Below, piece by piece: positions 1-9,468 of a stretch of 9,468 bases of DNA. The notes under the pieces were generated by a model. It searched no databases. It saw only the letters and a program-made list of their open reading frames with translations, and was not told the origin of the DNA. The stretch's first letter is position 1. Every line of letters starts with the position of its first letter. The translations under genes were made by a program, and so were the position numbers. This stretch comes from Candidatus Heimdallarchaeota archaeon (GTDB taxonomy: Archaea > Asgardarchaeota > Heimdallarchaeia > Heimdallarchaeales > Heimdallarchaeaceae), in the NCBI GenBank assembly GCA_030668875.1, contig DAOVER010000080.1, positions 1 through 9,468 of the forward strand, written 5' to 3'.

Positions 1-3000
1 GGTTATTTCCTTGCATTAAACGCTACCTCAGGAAGTGGGGTATTGTCAGTATATCGCTATGATGATGGTATCGCTACATTTCTTGAAGATTATTCTGGAC
101 TCGTTGATTTATCAAAAGATTTCAATTTTGGTATTTCTGTCACCGCATATTCTAGTTATATTCTTATGGAACTTATTTTGGCAGATCAAGTATTAGGCAG
201 TATTCTCGACTATACTACCACCTATTCAATTGGAGGTTATACAGGAACTGCATATTATAGGAATATAGATGGGTTGTACGGTGTAATTAATTCATATGGT
301 GTATATCACAAATACTATTATCCTACCTCTGACCATTTGCAGTTTGATACTTCAAGTAAAGATAATGCTTTTGTTGCTGGGAAGTTACACGTTGATTCAG
401 GTTCACTACAAACCGACATTCTTGACTTCACAGAACAACAAACTCTAACCCTTGTTTTTACTTTTGAACAATGGAACCCACATATTTTCATTGGACTTTC
501 AACTGCAGCTTATAACTATGGTTTCAGGTTCTATATGGGAAATGTTTACAAGAGAACTAATTCAGTTGATGAACTTCTGGAAGATGATTGGTGTAAAAAA
601 AATATCGGTCGTACGATGTATATTACTATCGTTTACGGTTTATCTGATGGTAGTTTCAATATGCAATTATTCACTGATAAATCTTTCAGACCAGTTGAAG
701 GTGACCCCCTCTATATTTCTTTTAATCCTTCCTTCACTGAACCTATTTTCGAAGTATCCAACCTATCTACATATCGTGCTGATTTAATTGTTGAAGCTGT
801 CGAACTCGGAGGAGTATATCCTATCGATGTTGAATTTGATGATGGTTCTTCAACTCACACCTTACGCGGTTCTGGAGAGATAGCTGAATACTATCTACAA
901 GCAACTTCTCAAGGTAGTTTGAAACTTAATTCTCTCATTGAATCTATCTTCATGAAAAGACAGTTCTATGTTCTAGATGGACAAAACACTACCATAGCTT
1001 TGAGTTACTTATCTCCTGGTTATCATGCGGAATCTTATTCAATTTTAATCTACAATCAAGAAGGTGTTTATCTAAACATTTCATTTTCAAGTGGTAGTAA
1101 TAATTGCGAAGAAATCACAGTTTACTATAATAATACTGTTGTAATGGAAGAGTTATTTTCTTACTCTGTTCCCTATTATCAATGGATTGATCTCTCTCTT
1201 ACAATTTCTCCATTATTACAAGTTTCCTTTCAAGTATCTCACCGAGGAGGAAGCTTTAGTGATTCCAGCTCTTTATCATATTATTTAGATGTCGATTCCT
1301 ACTATAATATCAAGATAATTAAACCTCAAAGTTCAGCTGATTACTCTCTTTATTTTTCGTATATTTCAGTCTATAATGGAGCAGGATTTTCTAGTAGTTT
1401 TACTTCAGGAGATTTATCAGAATGGATTTTCAGCGATAAACAATATTTCGAATATTCTCATGATATTAGCACATCTCCTGATCTATTATCACTATATGCT
1501 GAACCCTTAGGTGGATGGGCAGATTTTACTGTTTCAGTAGATGATGGTGCCTATGTACGAACCACCCGACTTCAAGTAGAAGATTTTGAGACTTTCAAAC
1601 CTTATCTAATTTTCCTTCCAAATAGAGTTGATACTACTGAAATTCATAAGTATACAATAATAGTAAATGGCATCCTTACAATATACAGTCTCTCTTTCCA
1701 AGAATCACTGTTAATTAGTGATTGGCTTGTTGCTAAACCATTGGATATTAATAATGAAGAGATACTAAATGATTTTACTCAAATAGGTTATTTGTTAGAG
1801 GATTTTGAAACTGATACTTTTTCTAATATCGATGTAGTTTCAGATCCTACTTCAACACTAGGAAATGTTGGAAAAATCATTGGTGAAGAAACACTTTCCT
1901 TAGGTTCATATATTGGCGGTCTATGTCAGAATGATTTAGATTTATCTTTGTATTATTATTGGAATGGTTTAGGAACACATTATCCATTTGAATTGGAATA
2001 TATCGTTACAAATGAATATCTTGTTCCCTCTGATCAAGTTGAAGAAAGAACAATCCGTGCAATTATTACTCCAGTTATCGCAGATGAACCTAATCAACCT
2101 TTATTTGATGCATGCTATACTGATGGTTCTAATTCTTCCATTAGTTATGTGCACTTCAAATTCTCCTACGTTCCAAACACTTGGCAGTTTGTTTATCTCA
2201 ACCTTGCTTCAATTACTGCTTATTCTGAACAAGAAACTACTAATCCTGAAGAAATCTCTGGACAATGGCAGCTACGGTGGTTTGAAGACATTATTTTCAA
2301 CAACCCTCAGAATGGAGCAGAGGTTTACATTGATGATATTCAAGCCTTCAATATTTATAATGAAGAAAGAGAAGTCTCACCTTTTGCTAGAGCCTATTTA
2401 CGAACTTCAAGTCTTAATTATGGAACTGAAGGAATATGGGTTCCCGAATATGTGAATTCATTAGGTTTTCTAGACTTTTCTCTTATTTCAAATAATGAAA
2501 CTACTCTAGCTACTGAACAAGCTGCTTTTATTGTTGAATGTGATAAAGAAGCTGATGTTGTGGTACATGTTACATCTACTCATCCGTTCATATTATATCA
2601 AGGACAAGTAATTATGGAACATGGTACCTGGATTTCTCCAAATGATCCTGTTGATTACTATTTCACTCTTCATGTTTTTGAAGGAGTAAATCGTTTCCTC
2701 ATCCGAACTTTCCATAAACAGAATGGTCTATTTCCTTGGCAAATCAAAGTTGATTTTCTTACCCAAACCAGTGTTAGAATGATTTCCTCCACTTATGAAG
2801 CTAGAGATGAATCCAAAGTTTTTGATAATTCTTATGAATATTCTATTGCTGATTGGTTAGTTTCCGATAGACCAGTTTCTTTTGGTGATTTAGATTATGT
2901 CAGTTATGATAAAGACCCATTTGTTGAACTTGATGAGAATACTGGTCATTATTTCGCTACTCGTTCCTTACCTTATCCTGATGAACAGTTCAATTACACA

Positions 3001-6000
3001 ATCCACCTTGATCAATATGATAAAGATATAACTGAATGGGTTGGTTTTGATGAATTTTACAATGAAACTGGGTATATGTCCTATATCGATTCCAATATGA
3101 ATACTACTTCTATTGAATTTACTGACCAAATTATTTATTATACTAATTTACACTTTTTGGAGAGCTCTCCTAATGATAATACTCTAAAAATACTTCTTAA
3201 TTACGACCCAACCTCTTTGGTTGAAGCCATGTATTTTGATGGTCAATACATTTATGGTAGATTAGGAGAAATTGGTTATCTTAACTCTACTTCTGATTTT
3301 GTTAACTATATTTCAGTAACTGAATTCAATGGTGCTTATATTCTAGAAATACCTTTATCTGATGCTTGGGAAACCTTTGGCTATGACTTTGAATGGCAAA
3401 ATTGGATACATTCACGTTTTGATGTAGAACCTGAAGCGGGTAAAATAGATATTAGCGGTCGTAATAATCCTTCCAGTGCTGGTGTTCATAGATTTTCTTT
3501 AGTCTTACGATGTCCTGATAATCTTGATTATATCTCATCTGATATCTTTGACATCCAAGCTAATCTTACAAAATATGATGATTCCATAAACACGTTCAAC
3601 CAAATAACTGAATATATTTCAACAAAGCAATCATTATCAGAGCTTTCTCCGCTACTCCAAACTGATGGTGATTATCGTTCATTACCAAGTTCGGGATTGC
3701 AATCTGGTAAGCAATCTTATGCTGGTAAAAAAGTTCTTGAGAGTGAGGTTTCTTGGGATGGTTTCAGATATCATACCATGCGTTTTGTCCTAATTGGAGT
3801 AGATCAGTACGGTAAATATGAAAATATGAATGGAGATGAAACTATTGACGAAAAAGATGCTACAGGTTTAGCTACTTATATGATTGTCAATGATGCTGGT
3901 ACAAAGCACGAACATACTAGTATTGTTCAACACATGATTGGTCCAGAAGGACAAAGTGGAGACTTGCAACCAACCTTGTTATGTCCTAGGTATACTATGA
4001 CAGCTTTTGCAACAGATAGCCTTCTATTCTCTACGTCACATCTTAAATTGTCTCAGACTTCAGCATCAAATTCAAGCATTTCACCCTTGTCTCTTGAACT
4101 TCTTCTTTCGGAAGGCAAACTCACTTCATTCAATATTGGTTCAATTTCCTTAAAGGATGATACTTACAAACAATCATTGAGTACTTTCCTAGCTTCCGCT
4201 GAATCTGATATTTATATTAGCTTTAGTCTTTCAAATGAAATCAGATTTACTTCTGGAAATGAAACTATTTCTTTAGATATTGAATACATCTCTCTTGTTG
4301 TCGGTGAATATAGAGTTGATTTTAGTAAATATCTTCAGAAACTTTCCATTAGTTATAGTGATAACAGAAATCTAGAAGTTATTGAAATCCATTTACTTTC
4401 CAGAGTTATTACTCATACTGATCCTATCGCTTTACACAAAAGCTATCATAAAATTGGACAAGTAAATGGTTTTGCTATTTATGATTATAATAAGATTTTA
4501 GCGATTTCTGAAGGAAAACTTTCTCCTCCTCAACAAGTTTCTCTTGGTCTTTTTGATACTCTAGCTACATATTTGACCAAAATTAAAGGTGGTTTTCTAA
4601 CCGTCATTGATGGTGTTAATAATGTTCTTGATAGTTTTACTGTTCGTTATCCTGGATTAAATAGTCGAATTAACTCTTGGTTTGAGAACTTACAAGATTC
4701 TGTTCAAAACACTCTCTCTTACATCGGTAATGTTGTTACTCAAACTGTTGAACGCATTCTTACCATTTTTAACGATGTTGTTAACATCATCACTAATTCT
4801 CTTATTGATACTATGCAAGGTATTATTGATTGGTGCATCCAACTTTTCAAAGATGCTATTATAGCTTATCAAATCCTCACTAACGCAGTGAAGAACTTCT
4901 TAGCAAAAGCTACAGCTTGGATATCTGAAGCATGGGACAAAGTTTCTGAATTCTTCAAAATGATAGGACAGGCAATAACTGATTTCTTCAAGATGTTAGG
5001 TCAAATTGCTCTTAAGATTATCAAAGGTGTTGCTTCATTCTATGCTGATCTTATGAGGGTTGGTATTCTCTTTATCTTCTCTATTCTATTTGGTACTAAT
5101 GTTGGTCTCCATGATACTCAAGATTTGATGTATGTTGATGGAACTTACGTTTTCGATAATCAAACTGTAACCAATTATCCTCAAGTTTACAAATTAGATC
5201 ATGTTATTGATGTACTTGCTGGTAGAACTGATTTAGAAGGAGAACTTACTGAAGAGGAGCTTGCTGAAATAGCAGAAAATTCTCTTAATCAAGGTCAAGG
5301 AGACAATGCAAATCCAGATCAAGCTGAGAGAATGCTTGCTGAGATGGGGTGTGAGACACAAGGTTTGACTGAAAAAGAAAAAGATTTCTTTGACGTCTTT
5401 AAATGGGTTTGTGCAGTAGAAGATGGAGGTCAATGGGATTATTATTTTGGATTAAGGAAACATCTCAGACTCTATGGACTTAATCTCTTCAGTGAAAATA
5501 CATTCATTCTAATCTGTGAAATTGTAATTGGTTTTCTACCTCTTGGTGGTTTAATTCAAGATGTTAAAGATGTATGTTTAGAACCAATGAAATTTTTCAG
5601 AATATTTGCAGGAGTAATGATTCCTCTTGATATAACAGAGCTTTTTGGGAATGTTTTATCACAAGTTTTTGGAGGATTAAAAGATTCTTGTGCAGGAAAA
5701 GGTATTGGAAAAGCATTAGGTGGCATAAAAGAATTTATCAAAACTATATTTGGTAAGGTTGCAAAGAAATTAAAGGAACCTCTGAAAAGAATACTGAAGG
5801 TTGCAAAAAATGCTTCTCTATTCTTCGTTGCACTACTATGTATGGTTACAATAATATTAATTCCAATGAGTGCTCTTGTATTTGTAGGGTTAGCAGCAGC
5901 CTTCCTGGTAATAATTGGATTTATAATATTCATTGTTGCTGCTTTTAAATTTCTAATGAAACGAATAATGAAACCATTATTTGAGCAGATGTTTAGAGGA

Positions 6001-8940
6001 TTATCTTGGTTGATAAGCAAAACAGGAGATGGCATAAAGAAACTTTTCACAATGGCTGATGAGTTAGCTAAAGGATTATTGACAAGAATAAAGAATAAAA
6101 TCGCAGATATATTCTCTGTTTTATGGAAGAAAATTAAGGGATTATGGGAATTTGGTAATTGGAAACCTTGGAAAGATACTCGAATGCCTTGGTGTGTTGC
6201 GTGTTACTCAAATCTAGCAAAACGTAACATTAATGATGTCTTTGAAGTCATTAAAAACGGAGATGAAGTTTGGGCTACAATAAAGAATCTTGATCCTAGT
6301 TCATGGGATGCAATAAAACATGGAGCTGATTTCGGTTTTCCTGAAGACATTCTTAAAATGGATGCAATAGAAGAAACTGCAAGATTGATATCACCAGGAA
6401 AGTCAGTAGATGAACTGTTTGAAGAAGGAGGAGAATGGACAACAAACGCGAAATTCAGGGAAAGATGGCTCGATGCATCAAATGCTTTCTATAAATCATA
6501 TAAAGAAACAATAGGAAATTTAGTTGCTAAAACCACTATCAAGCAAAATCTGATTGATCTTCAAAGGACTCTTCCCAAAAACAATTTTATTGACCAAGCA
6601 CTTCAGAATGCGGAAATAAACTCAATTGATGATTTAGTCAATGATCCAGATGCTTTGAATGCGGTTTTTAAAAACAGTCAAAATCTAGAAGGTTTGTGGA
6701 AATTCTACTTGGAACAAGCAAATACTAAGTTAGCTAATCTAAAAATTTCAGATCCAGAACTTGCAAAATGTATAACTGAACTAACCGAAGAAGAAGCACA
6801 AGCATATGCAAAAACACTACTAGTACTATGTGGAGCAAATTCTGATCTAATGACACAACCTCCCGGTCCCAAGGTAGCTAATGCGTATGCTGAACCCTTT
6901 CAGAGAGCATGGATAAAACTAAGAATCGATGAAGATGAAATAAGAAACATAATGTATACTGACAAATTTGATGAAATACTTTCCATTGGAAATCCAGGAA
7001 AATACGAAAAAGGTGTGAACCTAAACAATGGATTCGATGATATTCTCATTGGAAAAACTGCTGATAATGCCTATTATTTGAGCTTCATCGAACAAAAAAC
7101 AAATAGCATCAAAATGGTTTGGCTGAGAGATGGAAAGGGTACTGAAGCCTCTCAAAAAATCTTCTTAAATGCAAAGGAAAGTATCGATGATATAGAATCA
7201 AAACTAATTACTTTAGGTTTCTCAAAGAAGGAAGCAGAACAGATAATAGATAATTTATTAAGTAGAGCTAGAGGAAGTCCCCCTAACATTGGAATTGATT
7301 TCTTAAGAAAAGTATCTAATGGAGATTTGCTTGAAACATTAAAAAAAGTGGAACCAGCGCTAGATCAAAATACTATAAATGAAATTATGGAAGCTGCTAT
7401 TAAACAAAATCAAATAATTTCCCTTATTGAAACAGGTTCAACATTTAAAATGGCTTTTGATGAAAATGGTTTTCTAACTGTTTTGAAGAACCAAGAAGAA
7501 CATGTAACAAACATTATAGATTTGAAATATATAAATAAACAGAATAATATTGTAGACATTAAATTTGATGGCTCAATTTTCAAAATAGATATTGATTGTA
7601 ATACAAATAAATTAGTTATTCCTGAATTTCCTGGCAACAACATCAATTTAGATAGTTTAACCACTGCAGAGAAAAACGCATATGTAGAAATCAATCAACT
7701 AATTCAGGATTCTGTTTCAAACATTGAACTTTCTATCATTGGTTTAACACCCAATGAAATCGCTGGTAGAGTAAATCAAATGCAGAAGGCAATTTATGAC
7801 AAATTCATATGTAATAATTTATTTAAAGAACTTCAAATCCTATCAGAAGGAAGTGTTGATTTCAGTTTAGAAACACTATCTAATCCCTCGTATGCAGCTT
7901 TAATTGCAAATCGATTGGAATCCTTTTGTGATACCCATAGTATAGTTACATACAATAGACATCAACAATGGACAGTACCTTTTGGTCAAAGATTTAGTGA
8001 GGTATTTGGAGGATATAGAACTGAAAGTGAGATTCAGAGAACCTTAAAGGAAAAATTAATGCGGTCAGCTTTACTTAACTCTGATTATGATGTTAGTGAC
8101 ATGTCTCTAGATGATTTAGAATGTCTTTTTGAATCCGACCCTGAGTTATGGAATGTAATAATGAGAAACTATAGTCCAGATACATCTACTCCTAGCGGAC
8201 CTTTCTTCAGACGAACATCTGGTGGAAGAAAGAAGACTCTCTATCCATACGATAAAAGCGGTAATCCTTTATTGAAAGATGGTAAAGAAATCTATTTTGA
8301 ATTTGATTTAGATAGCATTATTAACAAACTAAATTCTGAGCATCAAATTAATGATATGCTATTAAAAAATCCTGTTAAATTTCATTACGTGGATGGACAT
8401 TTATTTGCTGATTTTAATTACAATAGAATTGACGGTTTAGCTGAATCATGGGTAGACTTTCTCCGAAAGAAATACTCTGGAATTATTCCAGATGAGCAAT
8501 TTGAGCAACTATTATCTCGATCTAATCTTGAGCATTGTTGGGGTGTAAATTTATTTGATTTTGAAAATTCTGAAGATATGTTCCTTTTTATTATAATTCT
8601 TGAAGAATATAAGAATAATTGGGACGAATTTGCAAGGATAATAGATGATGGTATTGCAAATGGTTTCATAGACTTGGCAAATGATATAGATGTCTCAGTA
8701 CGCAGTACTGGAAGCGGTTTTGTGAATATCGACGGGGAAGAGTATACATTGAGAATGTTAAGTTCTGGGAATGATCGAATGAATTGGAATAAATATGAGA
8801 TTCCATGTGCAAAATCAGGTTTTGAAAGATTGTTAAATGATATAAAACAGCAGGTTTATGTAACAGTATTAGGATTTCCAGAAGATGTTACTGCAAAAAG
8901 TTTTCTTGATTGGATAACAGCAAATTGGCATTTTCTATAG
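1..8940 (+). CDS. Giant (at least 2979 aa, 5'-partial) multidomain surface/membrane protein with a putative PD-(D/E)xK nuclease domain; polymorphic-toxin-like
   Basis: Frame 1 has no stop from base 1 (GGT TAT TTC CTT GCA TTA AAC GCT ACC TCA GGA AGT GGG GTA = GYFLALNATSGSGV) through the TTG at 43 to TAG 8938-8940. A stop-free frame of 8.9 kb in AT-rich DNA is certainly coding. The product call rests on the motifs listed below. Confidence 0.93.
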   Translation, partial: GYFLALNATSGSGVLSVYRYDDGIATFLEDYSGLVDLSKDFNFGISVTAYSSYILMELILADQVLGSILDYTTTYSIGGYTGTAYYRNIDGLYGVINSYGVYHKYYYPTSDHLQFDTSSKDNAFVAGKLHVDSGSLQTDILDFTEQQTLTLVFTFEQWNPHIFIGLSTAAYNYGFRFYMGNVYKRTNSVDELLEDDWCKKNIGRTMYITIVYGLSDGSFNMQLFTDKSFRPVEGDPLYISFNPSFTEPIFEVSNLSTYRADLIVEAVELGGVYPIDVEFDDGSSTHTLRGSGEIAEYYLQATSQGSLKLNSLIESIFMKRQFYVLDGQNTTIALSYLSPGYHAESYSILIYNQEGVYLNISFSSGSNNCEEITVYYNNTVVMEELFSYSVPYYQWIDLSLTISPLLQVSFQVSHRGGSFSDSSSLSYYLDVDSYYNIKIIKPQSSADYSLYFSYISVYNGAGFSSSFTSGDLSEWIFSDKQYFEYSHDISTSPDLLSLYAEPLGGWADFTVSVDDGAYVRTTRLQVEDFETFKPYLIFLPNRVDTTEIHKYTIIVNGILTIYSLSFQESLLISDWLVAKPLDINNEEILNDFTQIGYLLEDFETDTFSNIDVVSDPTSTLGNVGKIIGEETLSLGSYIGGLCQNDLDLSLYYYWNGLGTHYPFELEYIVTNEYLVPSDQVEERTIRAIITPVIADEPNQPLFDACYTDGSNSSISYVHFKFSYVPNTWQFVYLNLASITAYSEQETTNPEEISGQWQLRWFEDIIFNNPQNGAEVYIDDIQAFNIYNEEREVSPFARAYLRTSSLNYGTEGIWVPEYVNSLGFLDFSLISNNETTLATEQAAFIVECDKEADVVVHVTSTHPFILYQGQVIMEHGTWISPNDPVDYYFTLHVFEGVNRFLIRTFHKQNGLFPWQIKVDFLTQTSVRMISSTYEARDESKVFDNSYEYSIADWLVSDRPVSFGDLDYVSYDKDPFVELDENTGHYFATRSLPYPDEQFNYTIHLDQYDKDITEWVGFDEFYNETGYMSYIDSNMNTTSIEFTDQIIYYTNLHFLESSPNDNTLKILLNYDPTSLVEAMYFDGQYIYGRLGEIGYLNSTSDFVNYISVTEFNGAYILEIPLSDAWETFGYDFEWQNWIHSRFDVEPEAGKIDISGRNNPSSAGVHRFSLVLRCPDNLDYISSDIFDIQANLTKYDDSINTFNQITEYISTKQSLSELSPLLQTDGDYRSLPSSGLQSGKQSYAGKKVLESEVSWDGFRYHTMRFVLIGVDQYGKYENMNGDETIDEKDATGLATYMIVNDAGTKHEHTSIVQHMIGPEGQSGDLQPTLLCPRYTMTAFATDSLLFSTSHLKLSQTSASNSSISPLSLELLLSEGKLTSFNIGSISLKDDTYKQSLSTFLASAESDIYISFSLSNEIRFTSGNETISLDIEYISLVVGEYRVDFSKYLQKLSISYSDNRNLEVIEIHLLSRVITHTDPIALHKSYHKIGQVNGFAIYDYNKILAISEGKLSPPQQVSLGLFDTLATYLTKIKGGFLTVIDGVNNVLDSFTVRYPGLNSRINSWFENLQDSVQNTLSYIGNVVTQTVERILTIFNDVVNIITNSLIDTMQGIIDWCIQLFKDAIIAYQILTNAVKNFLAKATAWISEAWDKVSEFFKMIGQAITDFFKMLGQIALKIIKGVASFYADLMRVGILFIFSILFGTNVGLHDTQDLMYVDGTYVFDNQTVTNYPQVYKLDHVIDVLAGRTDLEGELTEEELAEIAENSLNQGQGDNANPDQAERMLAEMGCETQGLTEKEKDFFDVFKWVCAVEDGGQWDYYFGLRKHLRLYGLNLFSENTFILICEIVIGFLPLGGLIQDVKDVCLEPMKFFRIFAGVMIPLDITELFGNVLSQVFGGLKDSCAGKGIGKALGGIKEFIKTIFGKVAKKLKEPLKRILKVAKNASLFFVALLCMVTIILIPMSALVFVGLAAAFLVIIGFIIFIVAAFKFLMKRIMKPLFEQMFRGLSWLISKTGDGIKKLFTMADELAKGLLTRIKNKIADIFSVLWKKIKGLWEFGNWKPWKDTRMPWCVACYSNLAKRNINDVFEVIKNGDEVWATIKNLDPSSWDAIKHGADFGFPEDILKMDAIEETARLISPGKSVDELFEEGGEWTTNAKFRERWLDASNAFYKSYKETIGNLVAKTTIKQNLIDLQRTLPKNNFIDQALQNAEINSIDDLVNDPDALNAVFKNSQNLEGLWKFYLEQANTKLANLKISDPELAKCITELTEEEAQAYAKTLLVLCGANSDLMTQPPGPKVANAYAEPFQRAWIKLRIDEDEIRNIMYTDKFDEILSIGNPGKYEKGVNLNNGFDDILIGKTADNAYYLSFIEQKTNSIKMVWLRDGKGTEASQKIFLNAKESIDDIESKLITLGFSKKEAEQIIDNLLSRARGSPPNIGIDFLRKVSNGDLLETLKKVEPALDQNTINEIMEAAIKQNQIISLIETGSTFKMAFDENGFLTVLKNQEEHVTNIIDLKYINKQNNIVDIKFDGSIFKIDIDCNTNKLVIPEFPGNNINLDSLTTAEKNAYVEINQLIQDSVSNIELSIIGLTPNEIAGRVNQMQKAIYDKFICNNLFKELQILSEGSVDFSLETLSNPSYAALIANRLESFCDTHSIVTYNRHQQWTVPFGQRFSEVFGGYRTESEIQRTLKEKLMRSALLNSDYDVSDMSLDDLECLFESDPELWNVIMRNYSPDTSTPSGPFFRRTSGGRKKTLYPYDKSGNPLLKDGKEIYFEFDLDSIINKLNSEHQINDMLLKNPVKFHYVDGHLFADFNYNRIDGLAESWVDFLRKKYSGIIPDEQFEQLLSRSNLEHCWGVNLFDFENSEDMFLFIIILEEYKNNWDEFARIIDDGIANGFIDLANDIDVSVRSTGSGFVNIDGEEYTLRMLSSGNDRMNWNKYEIPCAKSGFERLLNDIKQQVYVTVLGFPEDVTAKSFLDWITANWHFL
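370..1380 (+). other. Beta-rich N-terminal region, probably two concanavalin-A/LamG-like (lectin-fold) domains
   Basis: Alternating hydrophobic strands rich in S/T/Y/D, e.g. TLTLVFTF..HIFIGL..YGFRFY..MYITIVY and YQWIDLSLTI..VSFQV..YSLYFSYISVYN. The fold is assigned from the pattern only. Confidence 0.35.
1714..2760 (+). other. PA14-like beta-sandwich domain 1, interrupted by an inserted CBM-like domain
   Basis: First strand ISDWLVAKP (1714-1740). The domain resumes at GIWVPEYVNSLGFLDF..AAFIVECDKEADVVVHVTSTHPFILYQGQVI..FTLHVFEGVNRFLIRTFHKQNGLFPWQIKV. This resembles the recalled pattern I.DWLV.GP..G.IDF..AY..I.S....V.L..GSDD..V..NG..V..L..G.N.LLIK. Confidence 0.5.
1786..2352 (+). other. Galactose-binding-like jelly-roll carbohydrate-binding module (CBM4/9, CBM11 or CIA30-like)
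   Basis: Starts YLLEDFE (1789-1809), contains PNTWQFVYLNL and ends GAEVYIDDIQAF (YIDDI 2326-2340). The EDFE..W..V.I.L..YIDDI pattern is typical of this fold. Confidence 0.6.
2845..3510 (+). other. PA14-like beta-sandwich domain 2 (diverged paralog of domain 1)
   Basis: IADWLVSDRP (2845-2874) parallels ISDWLVAKP, and AGVHRFSLVLR (3478-3510) parallels EGVNRFLIR. The segment IIYYTNLHF..LKILLNYD..AMYFDGQYIY parallels the central strands. Confidence 0.4.
3823..3858 (+). other. EF-hand/dockerin-like Ca2+-binding loop
   Basis: NMNGDETIDEKD matches the 12-residue loop pattern (D/N)xNxDxxIDxxD and is followed by a short helix (ATGLATY). Only one copy was seen. Confidence 0.45.
4546..5094 (+). other. 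Long amphipathic alpha-helical tract, tape-measure-like
   Basis: About 180 aa with a single proline and a continuous hydrophobic face (..WFENLQDSVQNTLSYIGNVVTQTVERILTIFNDVV..AWISEAWDKVSEFFKMIGQAITDFFKMLGQ..). W/F/F fall at 11-residue spacing in its distal part. It ends in a short hydrophobic segment, VGILFIFSILFG. Confidence 0.55.
4948..5013 (+). repeat. Degenerate 33-bp (11-codon) tandem duplication
   Basis: gaattcttcaaaatgataggacaggcaataact / gatttcttcaagatgttaggtcaaattgctctt, with 19 of the first 23 nt identical. The copies encode EFFKMIGQAIT and DFFKMLGQIAL. Confidence 0.7.
5518..5580 (+). other. Pre-toxin (PT-TG-like) motif
   Basis: EIVIGFLPLGGLIQDVKDVCL resembles the GFIP.VG.I.D..D motif that precedes variable toxin regions in polymorphic toxins. 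The downstream TG..L...ER part of canonical PT-TG is not evident. Confidence 0.4.
5812..5946 (+). other. 45-residue uncharged hydrophobic segment (two-helix membrane hairpin)
   Basis: ASLFFVALLCMVTIILIPMSALVFVGLAAAFLVIIGFIIFIVAAF contains no charged residue and has a Pro-Met-Ser turn near the middle. Both flanks are K/R-rich (KKLKEPLKRILKVAK and KFLMKRIMK). Confidence 0.85.
6868..7140 (+). other. Putative PD-(D/E)xK (restriction-endonuclease-fold, Tox-REase-like) nuclease domain
   Basis: Helix KVANAYAEPFQRAW (E at 6892), strand NNGFDDILIG (D at 7036) and strand YYLSFIEQKT (E at 7090, K at 7096). The order and spacing match the E..G[FI]D....[YI]I.E.K core of REase-fold toxins. Confidence 0.55.
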
Positions 8941-8946
8941 AAAGTG

Positions 8947-9053
8947 TGGTAGTCCATAGGAGAAAATCGAACAGATATCACTCAAATATCTGTTTCTCGA
9001 ACTCCTGCCGCCGGATTCAAAGTCCGGTATCCTTGCCGCTAGACTAATGGACT
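8947..9053 (-). tRNA. tRNA-Gln: tRNA-Gln(UUG), intron-containing, CCA encoded, archaeal type
   Basis: Minus strand: AGTCCAT TA GTCT AGCGGCAA GGAT A CCGGA CTTTGAA TCCGG CGGC AGGAG TTCGAG[32-nt intron]T CTCCT ATGGACT A CCA. The acceptor (7 bp), anticodon (5 bp) and T (5 bp) stems pair perfectly, and the D stem has two G.U pairs. The anticodon TTG is at 9020-9018 and the spliced length is 75 nt. A1-U72 is the archaeal tRNA-Gln signature, whereas bacteria typically have U1-A72. Confidence 0.96.
8964..8995 (-). other. 32-nt tRNA intron at non-canonical T-loop position 59/60 with a relaxed bulge-helix-bulge motif
   Basis: The intron is AAACAGATATTTGAGTGATATCTGTTCGATTT. It has an inner 9-bp helix AACAGATAT/ATATCTGTT, a central helix TTCG/CGAT (3 WC pairs plus U.U) and 3-nt bulges AGA and TTT. 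Cutting after the 2nd nt of each bulge restores a 7-nt T-loop, TTCGAGT. Confidence 0.88.
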
Positions 9054-9132: not shown

Positions 9133-9468
9133 TTATTTTGCTGGTTTATCTTGTTCTTTTTTTATACTATCTGCAAAATCCTTTACATCAGAGACTTGTC
9201 TTATCATAAATGAACCACCTAAACCACCTAAAATGGAAATAACACCTATCCAGAGAAGAAATCCAAAACCACTTATTGCGACACCATATTTTGAGATTGC
9301 ATACAAACTAGCATAAATTATATTTAACAAACCTCCAAATGTTGCTAAAGAGAATACAAAGAAGATTGCTGGGTGGAACTTTTTATTTACTTTTATCAGT
9401 TCGGGGTCTCTTTTCCAATCCTCTTCAATTTCATTGTAATATTCTACTTGTTTCTTAGGTCTAAAAGG
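9133..9468 (-). CDS. Small integral membrane protein, 5'-partial (at least 111 aa), two predicted TM helices, function unknown
   Basis: The frame is open from the right edge: PFRPKKQVEYYNEIEEDWKRDPELIKVNKKFHPAIFFVFSLATFGGLLNIIYASLYAISKYGVAISGFGFLLWIGVISILGGLGGSFMIRQVSDVKDFADSIKKEQDKPAK, with stop TAA at 9135-9133. The track's start at 9330 is an internal TTG. Two clear hydrophobic segments lie between charged flanks. Confidence 0.75.
   Translation of the reverse strand, partial: PFRPKKQVEYYNEIEEDWKRDPELIKVNKKFHPAIFFVFSLATFGGLLNIIYASLYAISKYGVAISGFGFLLWIGVISILGGLGGSFMIRQVSDVKDFADSIKKEQDKPAK

Follow-up and report, generated by a model that had tools for sequence, protein, structure and literature searches.

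What kind of protein is specified by one uninterrupted frame that fills nearly a whole archaeal contig, and what might its tail do? This question was raised by a contig of a Candidatus Heimdallarchaeota assembly (GCA_030668875.1, contig DAOVER010000080.1, here C25), whose entire length of 9,468 bp is referred to as the window. The host is a Heimdall-group Asgard archaeon of the family Heimdallarchaeaceae, and its assembly comprises 3.23 Mb in 99 contigs with 33% G+C. In this study, the frame was identified as very probably the downstream twin of a tandem pair of giant genes of the Otus/Ephialtes type, belonging to an aloposon-like integrated element. The core of its C-terminal tail probably represents an unclassified domain of the PD-(D/E)xK fold with a conserved E-D-ExK signature, as judged from a structure model. 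Moreover, it is tentatively proposed that the tail is an exported, exchangeable nuclease-like effector that is passed through a membrane. The class of element has already been published; the tail family, the three formats in which it occurs and the contrast in N-glycosylation sequons are the new details.

The frame is open on the forward strand from base 1 of the window to a stop codon at 8938-8940, giving 2,979 codons, and no long open reading frame (ORF) rivals it within the window. Because it runs off the end of C25, the 5' end of the gene was evidently lost to assembly. A first-pass annotation of the window had described a single polypeptide of at least 2979 amino acids (aa), and the whole protein, P0001, proved to be longer. 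Its closest relative, P0002, is a 4,628-aa protein encoded on a 304-kb contig of a Candidatus Heimdallarchaeota metagenome-assembled genome (MAG), and the two are 41% identical over 99% of the query. By comparison with P0002, the complete giant has ~4,600 aa, of which ~1,630 N-terminal residues are absent from the window. Part of the missing portion was found in the same genome on contig C62, which ends inside the 5' part of the giant and encodes ~590 aa that are 62% identical to P0002 residues 10-589 (tblastn); the ~1,040 aa between C62 and C25 are unassembled. Directly upstream on C62, a 1,559-aa gene overlaps the start of the giant by a few bases; its homolog is the 2,071-aa gene located before P0002. 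The 1,559-aa partner protein carries a signal peptide and a single C-terminal anchor, and the N-terminus of the giant itself (in P0002 and on C62) is a K/R-flanked signal anchor. No paralog of the giant was detected elsewhere in its own genome.

Aloposons have been described from two closed Candidatus Heimdallarchaeum genomes (endolithica/aukensis) as elements with tandem genes for proteins of 3,000-6,000 aa, named Otus and Ephialtes (Nat Microbiol 7:200, PMC8813620). Their integration takes place at tRNAs, which lie downstream of the giant pair (Wu et al. 2022, PMC8813620), and four consecutive upstream genes include a MinD/ParA-like ATPase (PMC8813620). The same report describes HeimV2 as a virus-aloposon hybrid and gives neither the domain architecture nor the function of the giants (PMC8813620). 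Here, genomes G006 and G007 were taken as the two closed genomes of that report. They hold overlapping pairs of 4,227 and 5,561 aa (G006) and of 4,229 and 5,545 aa (G007). The first giants have a signal peptide and a C-terminal anchor, the architecture of the partner protein at the present locus. In the second giants, a signal anchor is followed by ~3,900 aa of acidic sequence rich in Y/S/T/N, then by a hydrophobic block and a tail of ~1,600 aa with a higher K/R content. Compared with P0002 and the C62 product, the second giants are 31% identical over 174-175 aa at the N-terminus (E 1e-8 to 1e-12) and 24-30% identical over 79-156 aa at the hydrophobic block, and the remainder was not alignable. 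Furthermore, the ParA-like gene and a 103/110-aa gene are homologous between G006/G007 and the present type of locus. At L001, the locus of P0002, the gene order is ParA-like, 239 aa, 2,071 aa and 4,628 aa, with a 4-nt overlap of the last two and the ParA-like gene on the same strand, two genes upstream of the giants. In the genome under study, a 228-aa AAA_31 ORF (E 3e-5) lies upstream on C62, on the opposite strand and just before the contig end.

The present type of locus resembles the Otus/Ephialtes aloposons in its translationally coupled giants, a ParA-like gene upstream (on the same strand at L001), its 3' tRNA and its archaeal family. It differs from them in lying in another genus, in having most of its sequence diverged beyond BLAST and in its tail, since the tail of the published giants is another module without profile similarity to the present one. 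Two features depart from the published definition: the first giant, with 1,559 aa in its own genome and 2,071 aa at L001, falls below the published range, which speaks against the assignment, and the ParA-like ORF on C62 is encoded on the other strand. The first-pass annotation had recognised this architecture from no described family, and that view has to be given up, because the published aloposons, with Otus and Ephialtes as twin giants, match the locus. No function accompanied the 2022 description of aloposons and their ~5,000-aa twin proteins, which are confined to the archaeal group most closely related to eukaryotes.

The distribution of the giant is narrow. A word-indexed search of 5.8 billion proteins returned two relatives, P0002 and P0003, the latter being a 1,808-aa contig-cut fragment from a Heimdallarchaeaceae MAG that aligns to aa 890-1960 and bears the NCBI name 'phage tail protein'. 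Matches to the giant family were found in 18 of the 82 genomes of the class and were essentially confined to one family, in which 15 of 29 genomes had them. In addition, frames of 3,491, 2,137 and 2,349 aa (G003:C100, G003:C43 and G039:C106) have only the conserved hydrophobic block in common with the giant; the aloposon-like giant family therefore seems broader and more varied than the published pairs. In the G006 aloposon, the first upstream gene (503 aa, L030 10708-12216) encodes a DUF4365 domain of the PD-(D/E)xK clan (E 6e-12), and an Eco57I-type methylase gene follows the giants (L026 8303-10681); thus nuclease and modification functions recur around aloposon giants.

The tail of the giant was analysed as a separate module. 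AlphaFold2 modelling of aa 2254-2671 with a 10-sequence alignment gave a mean confidence (pLDDT) of 89 and a predicted TM-score (pTM) of 0.91. The model runs in the order helix 2293-2307 (with E2298), strands 2323-2330, 2347-2353 and 2358-2367 (with E2364-Q-K2366) and helix 2382-2404, which constitutes an alpha-beta-beta-beta-alpha core. D2346 (GFD2346-D2347) is placed at the start of beta-2, E2364-x-K2366 in beta-3 and E2298 in the preceding helix, and these are the canonical positions of the predicted fold. Among 16 sequences, E2298, D2346 and K2366 were invariant and E2364 was kept in 14, across lineages at 25-45% identity. The exception is a single subclade (P0011 and the G007 solo copy), in which the E of ExK and the second D are replaced. 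The PD-(D/E)xK-like motif proposed in the first-pass annotation thus recurs in 14-16 of 16 homologs, and the nuclease-fold signal that it had placed at aa ~2270-2370 is present in the modelled core, with PD-(D/E)xK nucleases as the best structural neighbours, all of them weak.

Comparisons with four structure libraries placed PD-(D/E)xK nucleases first; each result is weak by itself, but the results are mutually consistent. VIA-align put HamA, the Hachiman nuclease (8vxy), first in three runs (Z 5.3, 5.0 and 5.0; root-mean-square deviation 5.3-5.7 A over 164-177 residues), with PaqCI, Bse634I, BsoBI, SgrAI and MspI at lower ranks. The best cluster of the AlphaFold database in a Foldseek search was named 'PD-(D/E)XK nuclease superfamily protein' (E 4e-3) and was followed by several restriction endonucleases and DUF1837, and the top three rows of the ESM-Atlas shape search were PDDEXK_2, PDDEXK_4 and PDDEXK_1. 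HamA (DUF1837) and the tail domain have in common the alpha-beta-beta-beta-alpha core predicted here, an acidic residue where beta-2 begins and ExK within beta-3. Unlike HamA, the tail domain has no DUF1837 match in Pfam or PADLOC, has no HamB-type helicase beside the giant and is embedded in a module of 800-990 aa, here fused to a giant membrane protein. Two considerations limit the fold assignment. All of the structural matches are weak, with Z <= 5.3, Foldseek E >= 4e-3 and TM by row <= 0.47, and no sequence profile of Pfam, NCBIfam or PADLOC recognised the tail domain in the giant or in 14 tail homologs. Sub-threshold matches to DUF7217 (0.009), RuvA_C (0.0065-0.046), HAMP_2, uL30, BrxB (0.012) and VRR_NUC (0.13, one member) were judged to be chance. 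The ESM-Atlas feature search with the tail gave scores of <=0.82, all under 0.9, and Foldseek with a 940-aa model gave nothing beyond noise in either PDB or AFDB, so that the search had to be made with the single domain. For experimental purposes, aa 2254-2671 offer a compact nuclease-like domain with named putative catalytic residues that can be expressed and assayed.

An exhaustive phmmer search with aa 1780-2979 against 1.84 billion representatives returned only 14 proteins, and the tail module was found in three formats. It is fused to giants in P0001 (where it spans ~990 aa), P0002 and P0003. It is anchored in a membrane in P0017, whose complete gene (1,174 aa) begins precisely with hydrophobic segment 2 and is 45% identical over aa 1824-2979. 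Finally, it occurs as soluble proteins of 725-975 aa without signal peptides, encoded in ordinary chromosomal contexts in many Heimdallarchaeaceae, with up to three per genome. The soluble, membrane-anchored and giant-fused forms constitute a natural 'deletion series' of the module. The parts of the giant have diverged at different rates: compared with P0002, the outer part is 37-59% identical and the hydrophobic block 72%, whereas the tail reaches only 20-31%. The first-pass annotation had suggested examining whether homologs share the N-terminal part and differ at the C-terminus, and this pattern was observed. A maximum-likelihood (ML) tree of the tails does not recover P0001 and P0002 as sisters: the P0002 tail clusters with soluble copies (80/95), a second clade unites P0017 and its relatives, and a placement of P0001 in either of these groups is not supported. 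The tail domain and the tails of the published aloposon giants were also compared with hhalign, which gave a probability of 0.2, and a likeness noted by eye (EAFQEPFF...GFDNVIV) was set aside on the strength of this value.

Whether the tails leave the cell is a question on which their sequons bear. Six membrane-tethered tails (P0001, P0002, P0003, P0017 and the second giants of G006 and G007; about four independent lineages) contain 7 N-x-S/T sequons, compared with 49.1 expected from their own composition (z -6.4), and none of 500 shuffles reached 7. Control patterns in the same tails stayed near expectation, with 52 vs 50.5 for N[ST], 38 vs 50.7 for Nxx[ST], 62 vs 49.9 for Nxxx[ST], 49 vs 50.6 for [ST]xN and 49 vs 49.5 for Dx[ST]. 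Nine soluble paralogs have 49 sequons vs 68 expected, and the outer parts of P0001 and P0002 have sequons at expectation. Non-membrane ORFs of >=500 aa from the giant's own genome have 791 vs 841, and 0 of 27 ORFs of comparable expectation fell below a ratio of 0.3. The depletion is confined to the sequon register and to tethered tails. Selection against sequons is not possible in a domain that always stays in the cytoplasm, which suggests that at some stage the tails face the outside and have to remain unglycosylated. A restriction-enzyme-like domain in a fast-evolving tail that avoids glycosylation sites thus offers a first testable clue to the role of the giants.

Taken together, the avoidance of sequons, the fast-evolving and non-monophyletic tails and the tape-measure-like, cationic and hydrophobic middle of the protein fit an exported, exchangeable effector. 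In this proposal, the giant and the co-transcribed type-I surface giant would form a cell-surface contact device of the mobile element, with the tail as the exchangeable effector of the giant. The tail would be exported across the membrane of the producer and later threaded through the hydrophobic, tape-measure-like module into the membrane or cytoplasm of another cell; because of this later threading, it would be kept free of N-glycans. The nuclease-like domain may then act on DNA in the recipient cell. In function, such a protein would be a polymorphic contact-dependent effector built of parts unrelated to bacterial contact-dependent inhibition (CDI)/Rhs systems. The broader view is more speculative and is regarded as doubtful, namely that aloposon giants are an Asgard-specific system of contact-dependent effector delivery with a twin-giant chassis, a tape-measure-like membrane-insertion module and swappable glycan-free tails, in which the tail of this lineage would be a new PD-(D/E)xK family exchanged with soluble copies. 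If this view were true, the archaea most closely related to eukaryotes would have evolved a polymorphic-toxin-like or DNA-transfer-like machine of their own, independent of its bacterial counterparts. More generally, delivered tails would imply that Asgard archaea possess a new type of system for conflict or transfer between cells.

Polymorphic toxins are the obvious comparison, the set considered here being CdiA, Rhs and the archaeal systems that were reportedly surveyed by Makarova et al. in 2019. Like them, the giant is a surface protein of large size in which the N-terminal part is better conserved, the middle region is membrane-active and the C-terminal module, of probable nuclease fold, diverges fast and is apparently exchangeable. 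Unlike them, it has no RHS, FHA, PT-TG, LXG, PAAR or Hint domain and no adjacent immunity gene, its hydrophobic hairpins would hold it in the producer, and it has soluble paralogs with intact motifs.

Several of these points, and others, weigh against an exported effector. The hairpin is flanked by 13 K/R in 44 aa before it and by 14 K/R in 70 aa after it, so that the positive-inside rule puts the tail in the cytoplasm; sequon avoidance (tail outside) and the positive-inside rule (tail inside) are thus in conflict. The soluble paralogs without signal peptides keep the signature, which indicates that the module works in the cytoplasm and is no indiscriminate poison. Since the tethered tails are related lineages, the sequon statistic overstates their independence, and the ML tree of the tails has long branches and moderate support. 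No immunity-type gene follows the giant, where the tRNA and then a small convergent ORF are located. In searches of Pfam and NCBIfam (E<=1 for P0001, E<=0.1 for P0002 and P0003), none of RHS, FHA, PT-TG, LXG, PAAR and Hint was detected; the first-pass annotation had likewise seen no RHS, FHA, LXG, PAAR or Hint hallmarks, and the PT-TG-like motif that it had named gained no Pfam match at E<=1.

These points lead to the best-surviving alternative, in which the tail stays in the cytoplasm of the producer. It would then be a membrane-tethered PD-(D/E)xK nuclease, anchored or regulated by the outer part and the hydrophobic cluster and acting in cis on membrane-adjacent DNA, for superinfection exclusion, for defence or for processing of element DNA. 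Besides the K/R-rich hairpin flanks, a cytoplasm-like composition of the tail (K/R 9-14% vs 4-8% in the outer part) is consistent with this location, as are the soluble and membrane-anchored paralogs that lack any outer part. The nearest structural neighbour, HamA, is a defence nuclease, no immunity gene is present, and a published aloposon has a separate DUF4365 gene together with an Eco57I-type methylase. However, a cytoplasmic tail leaves unexplained why tethered tails have 7 sequons against 49 expected when neither the soluble paralogs nor the cytoplasmic-like proteome shows such depletion, and no sign of signal transmission was seen in the data. A cytoplasmic tail is accordingly considered unlikely; if tails do stay inside, the giant would be an unusually large surface-coupled nuclease. 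The first-pass annotation had left open two options that correspond to these readings. The self-delivering toxin draws on sequon avoidance and on the fast, non-monophyletic tails and is opposed by the positive-inside rule, the soluble paralogs and the missing immunity gene. The sensor with an intracellular nuclease draws on the positive-inside rule, the intact motifs of the soluble paralogs and the absence of a downstream immunity gene, and is opposed by sequon avoidance.

The remaining alternatives are less probable still. The giant could be a structural or adhesive envelope protein of the element or host, with the nuclease-like domain as a non-catalytic scaffold whose conserved residues serve folding or binding. 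The lack of any family-level sequence match, the weak structural matches, the end-to-end colinearity of the homologs and the loss of the E of ExK and of the second D in the P0011/G007 solo subclade would all be compatible with such a protein. Nevertheless, lineages at 25-45% identity retain E, D and K without exception and the ExK glutamate in 14 of 16 sequences, and the module persists as independent soluble genes in many genomes, so that a purely structural role appears distinctly unlikely. It is similarly improbable that the tail is exported without being delivered, as an extracellular nuclease or DNA-binding module that is tethered to the cell surface and would capture or cut external DNA (e.g., in transfer or uptake of the element), with the twin giants as a contact structure. 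The exposure to the outer face implied by sequon avoidance would agree with this role, and so would the ParA-like partition gene, the tRNA-linked element context and the tape-measure-like, hydrophobic module, which recalls DNA-conduit proteins. Glycans are usually tolerated by extracellular enzymes, however, and near-total avoidance across unrelated tails would remain unexplained; moreover, the positive-inside rule opposes this location and no evidence of DNA transfer functions was found. That the giant is a tape-measure or tail protein of the virion of some integrated archaeal virus is very improbable, because in spite of matches to PHROGs tape-measure families with E down to 1e-11, the NCBI name of P0003 and the virus-aloposon hybrid HeimV2, the similarity is limited to aa ~1510-2050 of ~4,600, no capsid, portal or terminase genes lie near the giants (L001, C62) and no relative of the giant was found among 2.9 million viral contigs.

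The features of the window are collected in the following table.

Table 1. Features of the 9,468-bp window, with positions in the window, strand and the basis of each entry.
Feature	Position	Strand	Basis
3' two-thirds of the second (downstream) giant gene, very probably aloposon-like	1..8940	+	41% identity, 99% coverage to 4,628-aa P0002
Part of the outer (extracellular) region, aa 1-1500; acidic, Tyr/Ser/Thr/Asn-rich, no detectable family	1..4500	+	composition; signal anchor of P0002/C62
Dockerin/EF-hand-like Ca-binding loop NGDETIDEKDATGL, aa 1277-1290	3829..3870	+	sub-threshold Dockerin_1 on P0002 2864-2886, E 0.0072; conserved in P0003
Amphipathic helical tract, aa ~1510-1676	4528..5028	+	locally resembles phage tape-measure proteins
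Hydrophobic segment 1, aa 1677-1703	5029..5109	+	hydropathy scan
Acidic loop, aa 1704-1828; 26 D/E, 9 K/R	5110..5484	+	
Most conserved block: hydrophobic segment 2 (aa 1829-1855) and weaker segment (aa 1864-1892, invariant acidic residues)	5485..5676	+	
Cationic amphipathic segment, aa 1893-1932	5677..5796	+	loop 1893-1936: 13 K/R in 44 aa
Very hydrophobic double-length hairpin, aa 1933-1990	5797..5970	+	hydropathy up to 3.08
Invariant juxtamembrane motif WKPWKDTRMPWCVAC, CxxC at C2065/C2068	6160..6204	+	
Confidently folded tail domain, aa 2254-2671; putative PD-(D/E)xK-like core aa ~2293-2404	6760..8013	+	AlphaFold2
C-terminal part of the tail module, aa 2672-2979; ends in conserved W-I-T-x-N-W motif, no known fold assigned	8014..8937	+	alignments, moderate model confidence
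tRNA-Gln(TTG) with ~30-nt non-canonical intron in T-arm	8947..9053	-	clean tRNA after intron removal
Convergent small ORF, >=111 aa, runs off contig; two hydrophobic segments, no family	9133..9468	-	

The order of modules given in the first-pass annotation, an outer part followed by a helical and hydrophobic middle and a nuclease-like tail, was recovered in these features. The outer region of the complete giant spans ~3,250 aa and is acidic; in the part encoded here, D/E account for 11-16% and K/R for 4-8% of residues. The annotation had divided this region into lectin-, carbohydrate-binding module (CBM)- and PA14-like beta domains. Those assignments were not sustained, since aa 1-1520 had no sequence match in Pfam, NCBIfam or PDB and gave only sub-threshold language-model leads in ESM-Atlas (0.80-0.87, all <0.9) to ConA-like/CBM/PA14 clusters. 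A BLAST comparison of the outer part with itself revealed no internal repeats. The predicted dockerin/EF-hand-like loop would be compatible with an extracellular location.

The amphipathic helical tract, the membrane hairpin and the CxxC pair named in the first-pass annotation were all found again. The helical tract and the hydrophobic region that follows it (aa ~1510-2050) matched many PHROGs tape-measure families with E 1e-11 to 1e-7, and the same similarity was found in P0002, P0003 and P0017. As the match is local and lies in biased helical and hydrophobic sequence, the region is labelled tape-measure-like and not tape measure; the full-length match to a tape-measure family that the annotation had raised was not found. 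The giant shares with phage tape-measure proteins a local hidden Markov model similarity in an amphipathic and hydrophobic middle. It differs from them in its beta-rich outer part of 3,000+ aa, in the absence of a virion gene context and in a similarity that is not full length. A match of P0003 to ZorA (E 0.0021, score 16 vs a cut-off of 190) was rejected because it lies in the coiled helical tract. Within the tract, an 11-residue duplication in the protein (EFFKMIGQAIT/DFFKMLGQIAL) is encoded at 4948-5013, and the corresponding 33-bp repeat was not reported by Tandem Repeats Finder at a score threshold of 40.

The block around hydrophobic segment 2 is also present in the published aloposon giants. 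The CxxC pair sits in an invariant WKPWK..RMPWC(V/I)AC motif. The hairpin is flanked by cationic amphipathic helices (5677-5796 and 5971-6204), of which one, GIGKALGGIKEFIKTIFGKVAKKLK, resembles membrane-active peptides and the other is a Trp-rich interface motif, WKKIKGLWEFGNWKPWK.

The neighbouring tRNA reported in the first-pass annotation, from which an archaeal host had correctly been expected, became visible only after removal of an intron. In the raw window it was missed by ARAGORN, with or without anticodon-loop introns, and by Rfam at E<=1, and deletion of ~30 nt of the T-arm yielded a canonical 77-nt tRNA-Gln(TTG). The insertion in the T-arm is an archaeal-type non-canonical intron. 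The 3' end of the tRNA lies 6 nt from the stop codon of the giant. Intron-bearing tRNAs of this type are probably under-called across these MAGs, which would mask integration sites too. No att-like repeat of tRNA-Gln was found elsewhere in the giant's own fragmented assembly. The convergent small ORF beyond the tRNA is probably host flank. In a sister species, G022, only the last 145 aa of the giant are kept (L017; G022:C250, 1218-1935), and these are 85% identical. The remnant adjoins the same tRNA region (92% nucleotide identity) and a 477-aa N6-methylase-like gene, which argues that the tRNA site is variable; the remnant may stem from an element that decayed or was replaced, or the tRNA may carry a variable island. 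No event of excision or insertion was seen.

Several observations concern the neighbours of the giants and of the tail copies. Small ORFs precede the first giant (204 aa in this genome, 239 aa at L001); they could be aligned neither to each other nor to anything near the solo copies, and they yielded no candidate for an immunity gene. A convergent 479-aa zinc-ribbon gene follows P0002 (L001 23908-25347), and its zinc-ribbon N-terminus resembles the N-terminus of the gene after the module in G009. The latter gene is in turn 63% identical to the 332-aa gene that follows P0017 (L016 3209-4417; L010 7060-8058), so that the genes beside three tail modules may be a recurring neighbour. The soluble 906-aa copy P0009 lies between Fumerase_C and Fumerase genes (L005 2875-5595; L006 3291-6011), with a SIR2 gene and a helicase fragment nearby, and looks like an insertion into an operon. 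In G006, a soluble tail copy (974-aa frame) is located right after a tRNA-Leu, ~11 kb downstream of the aloposon giants and just past a tRNA-Pro (L026 16201-16277, 18000-18084).

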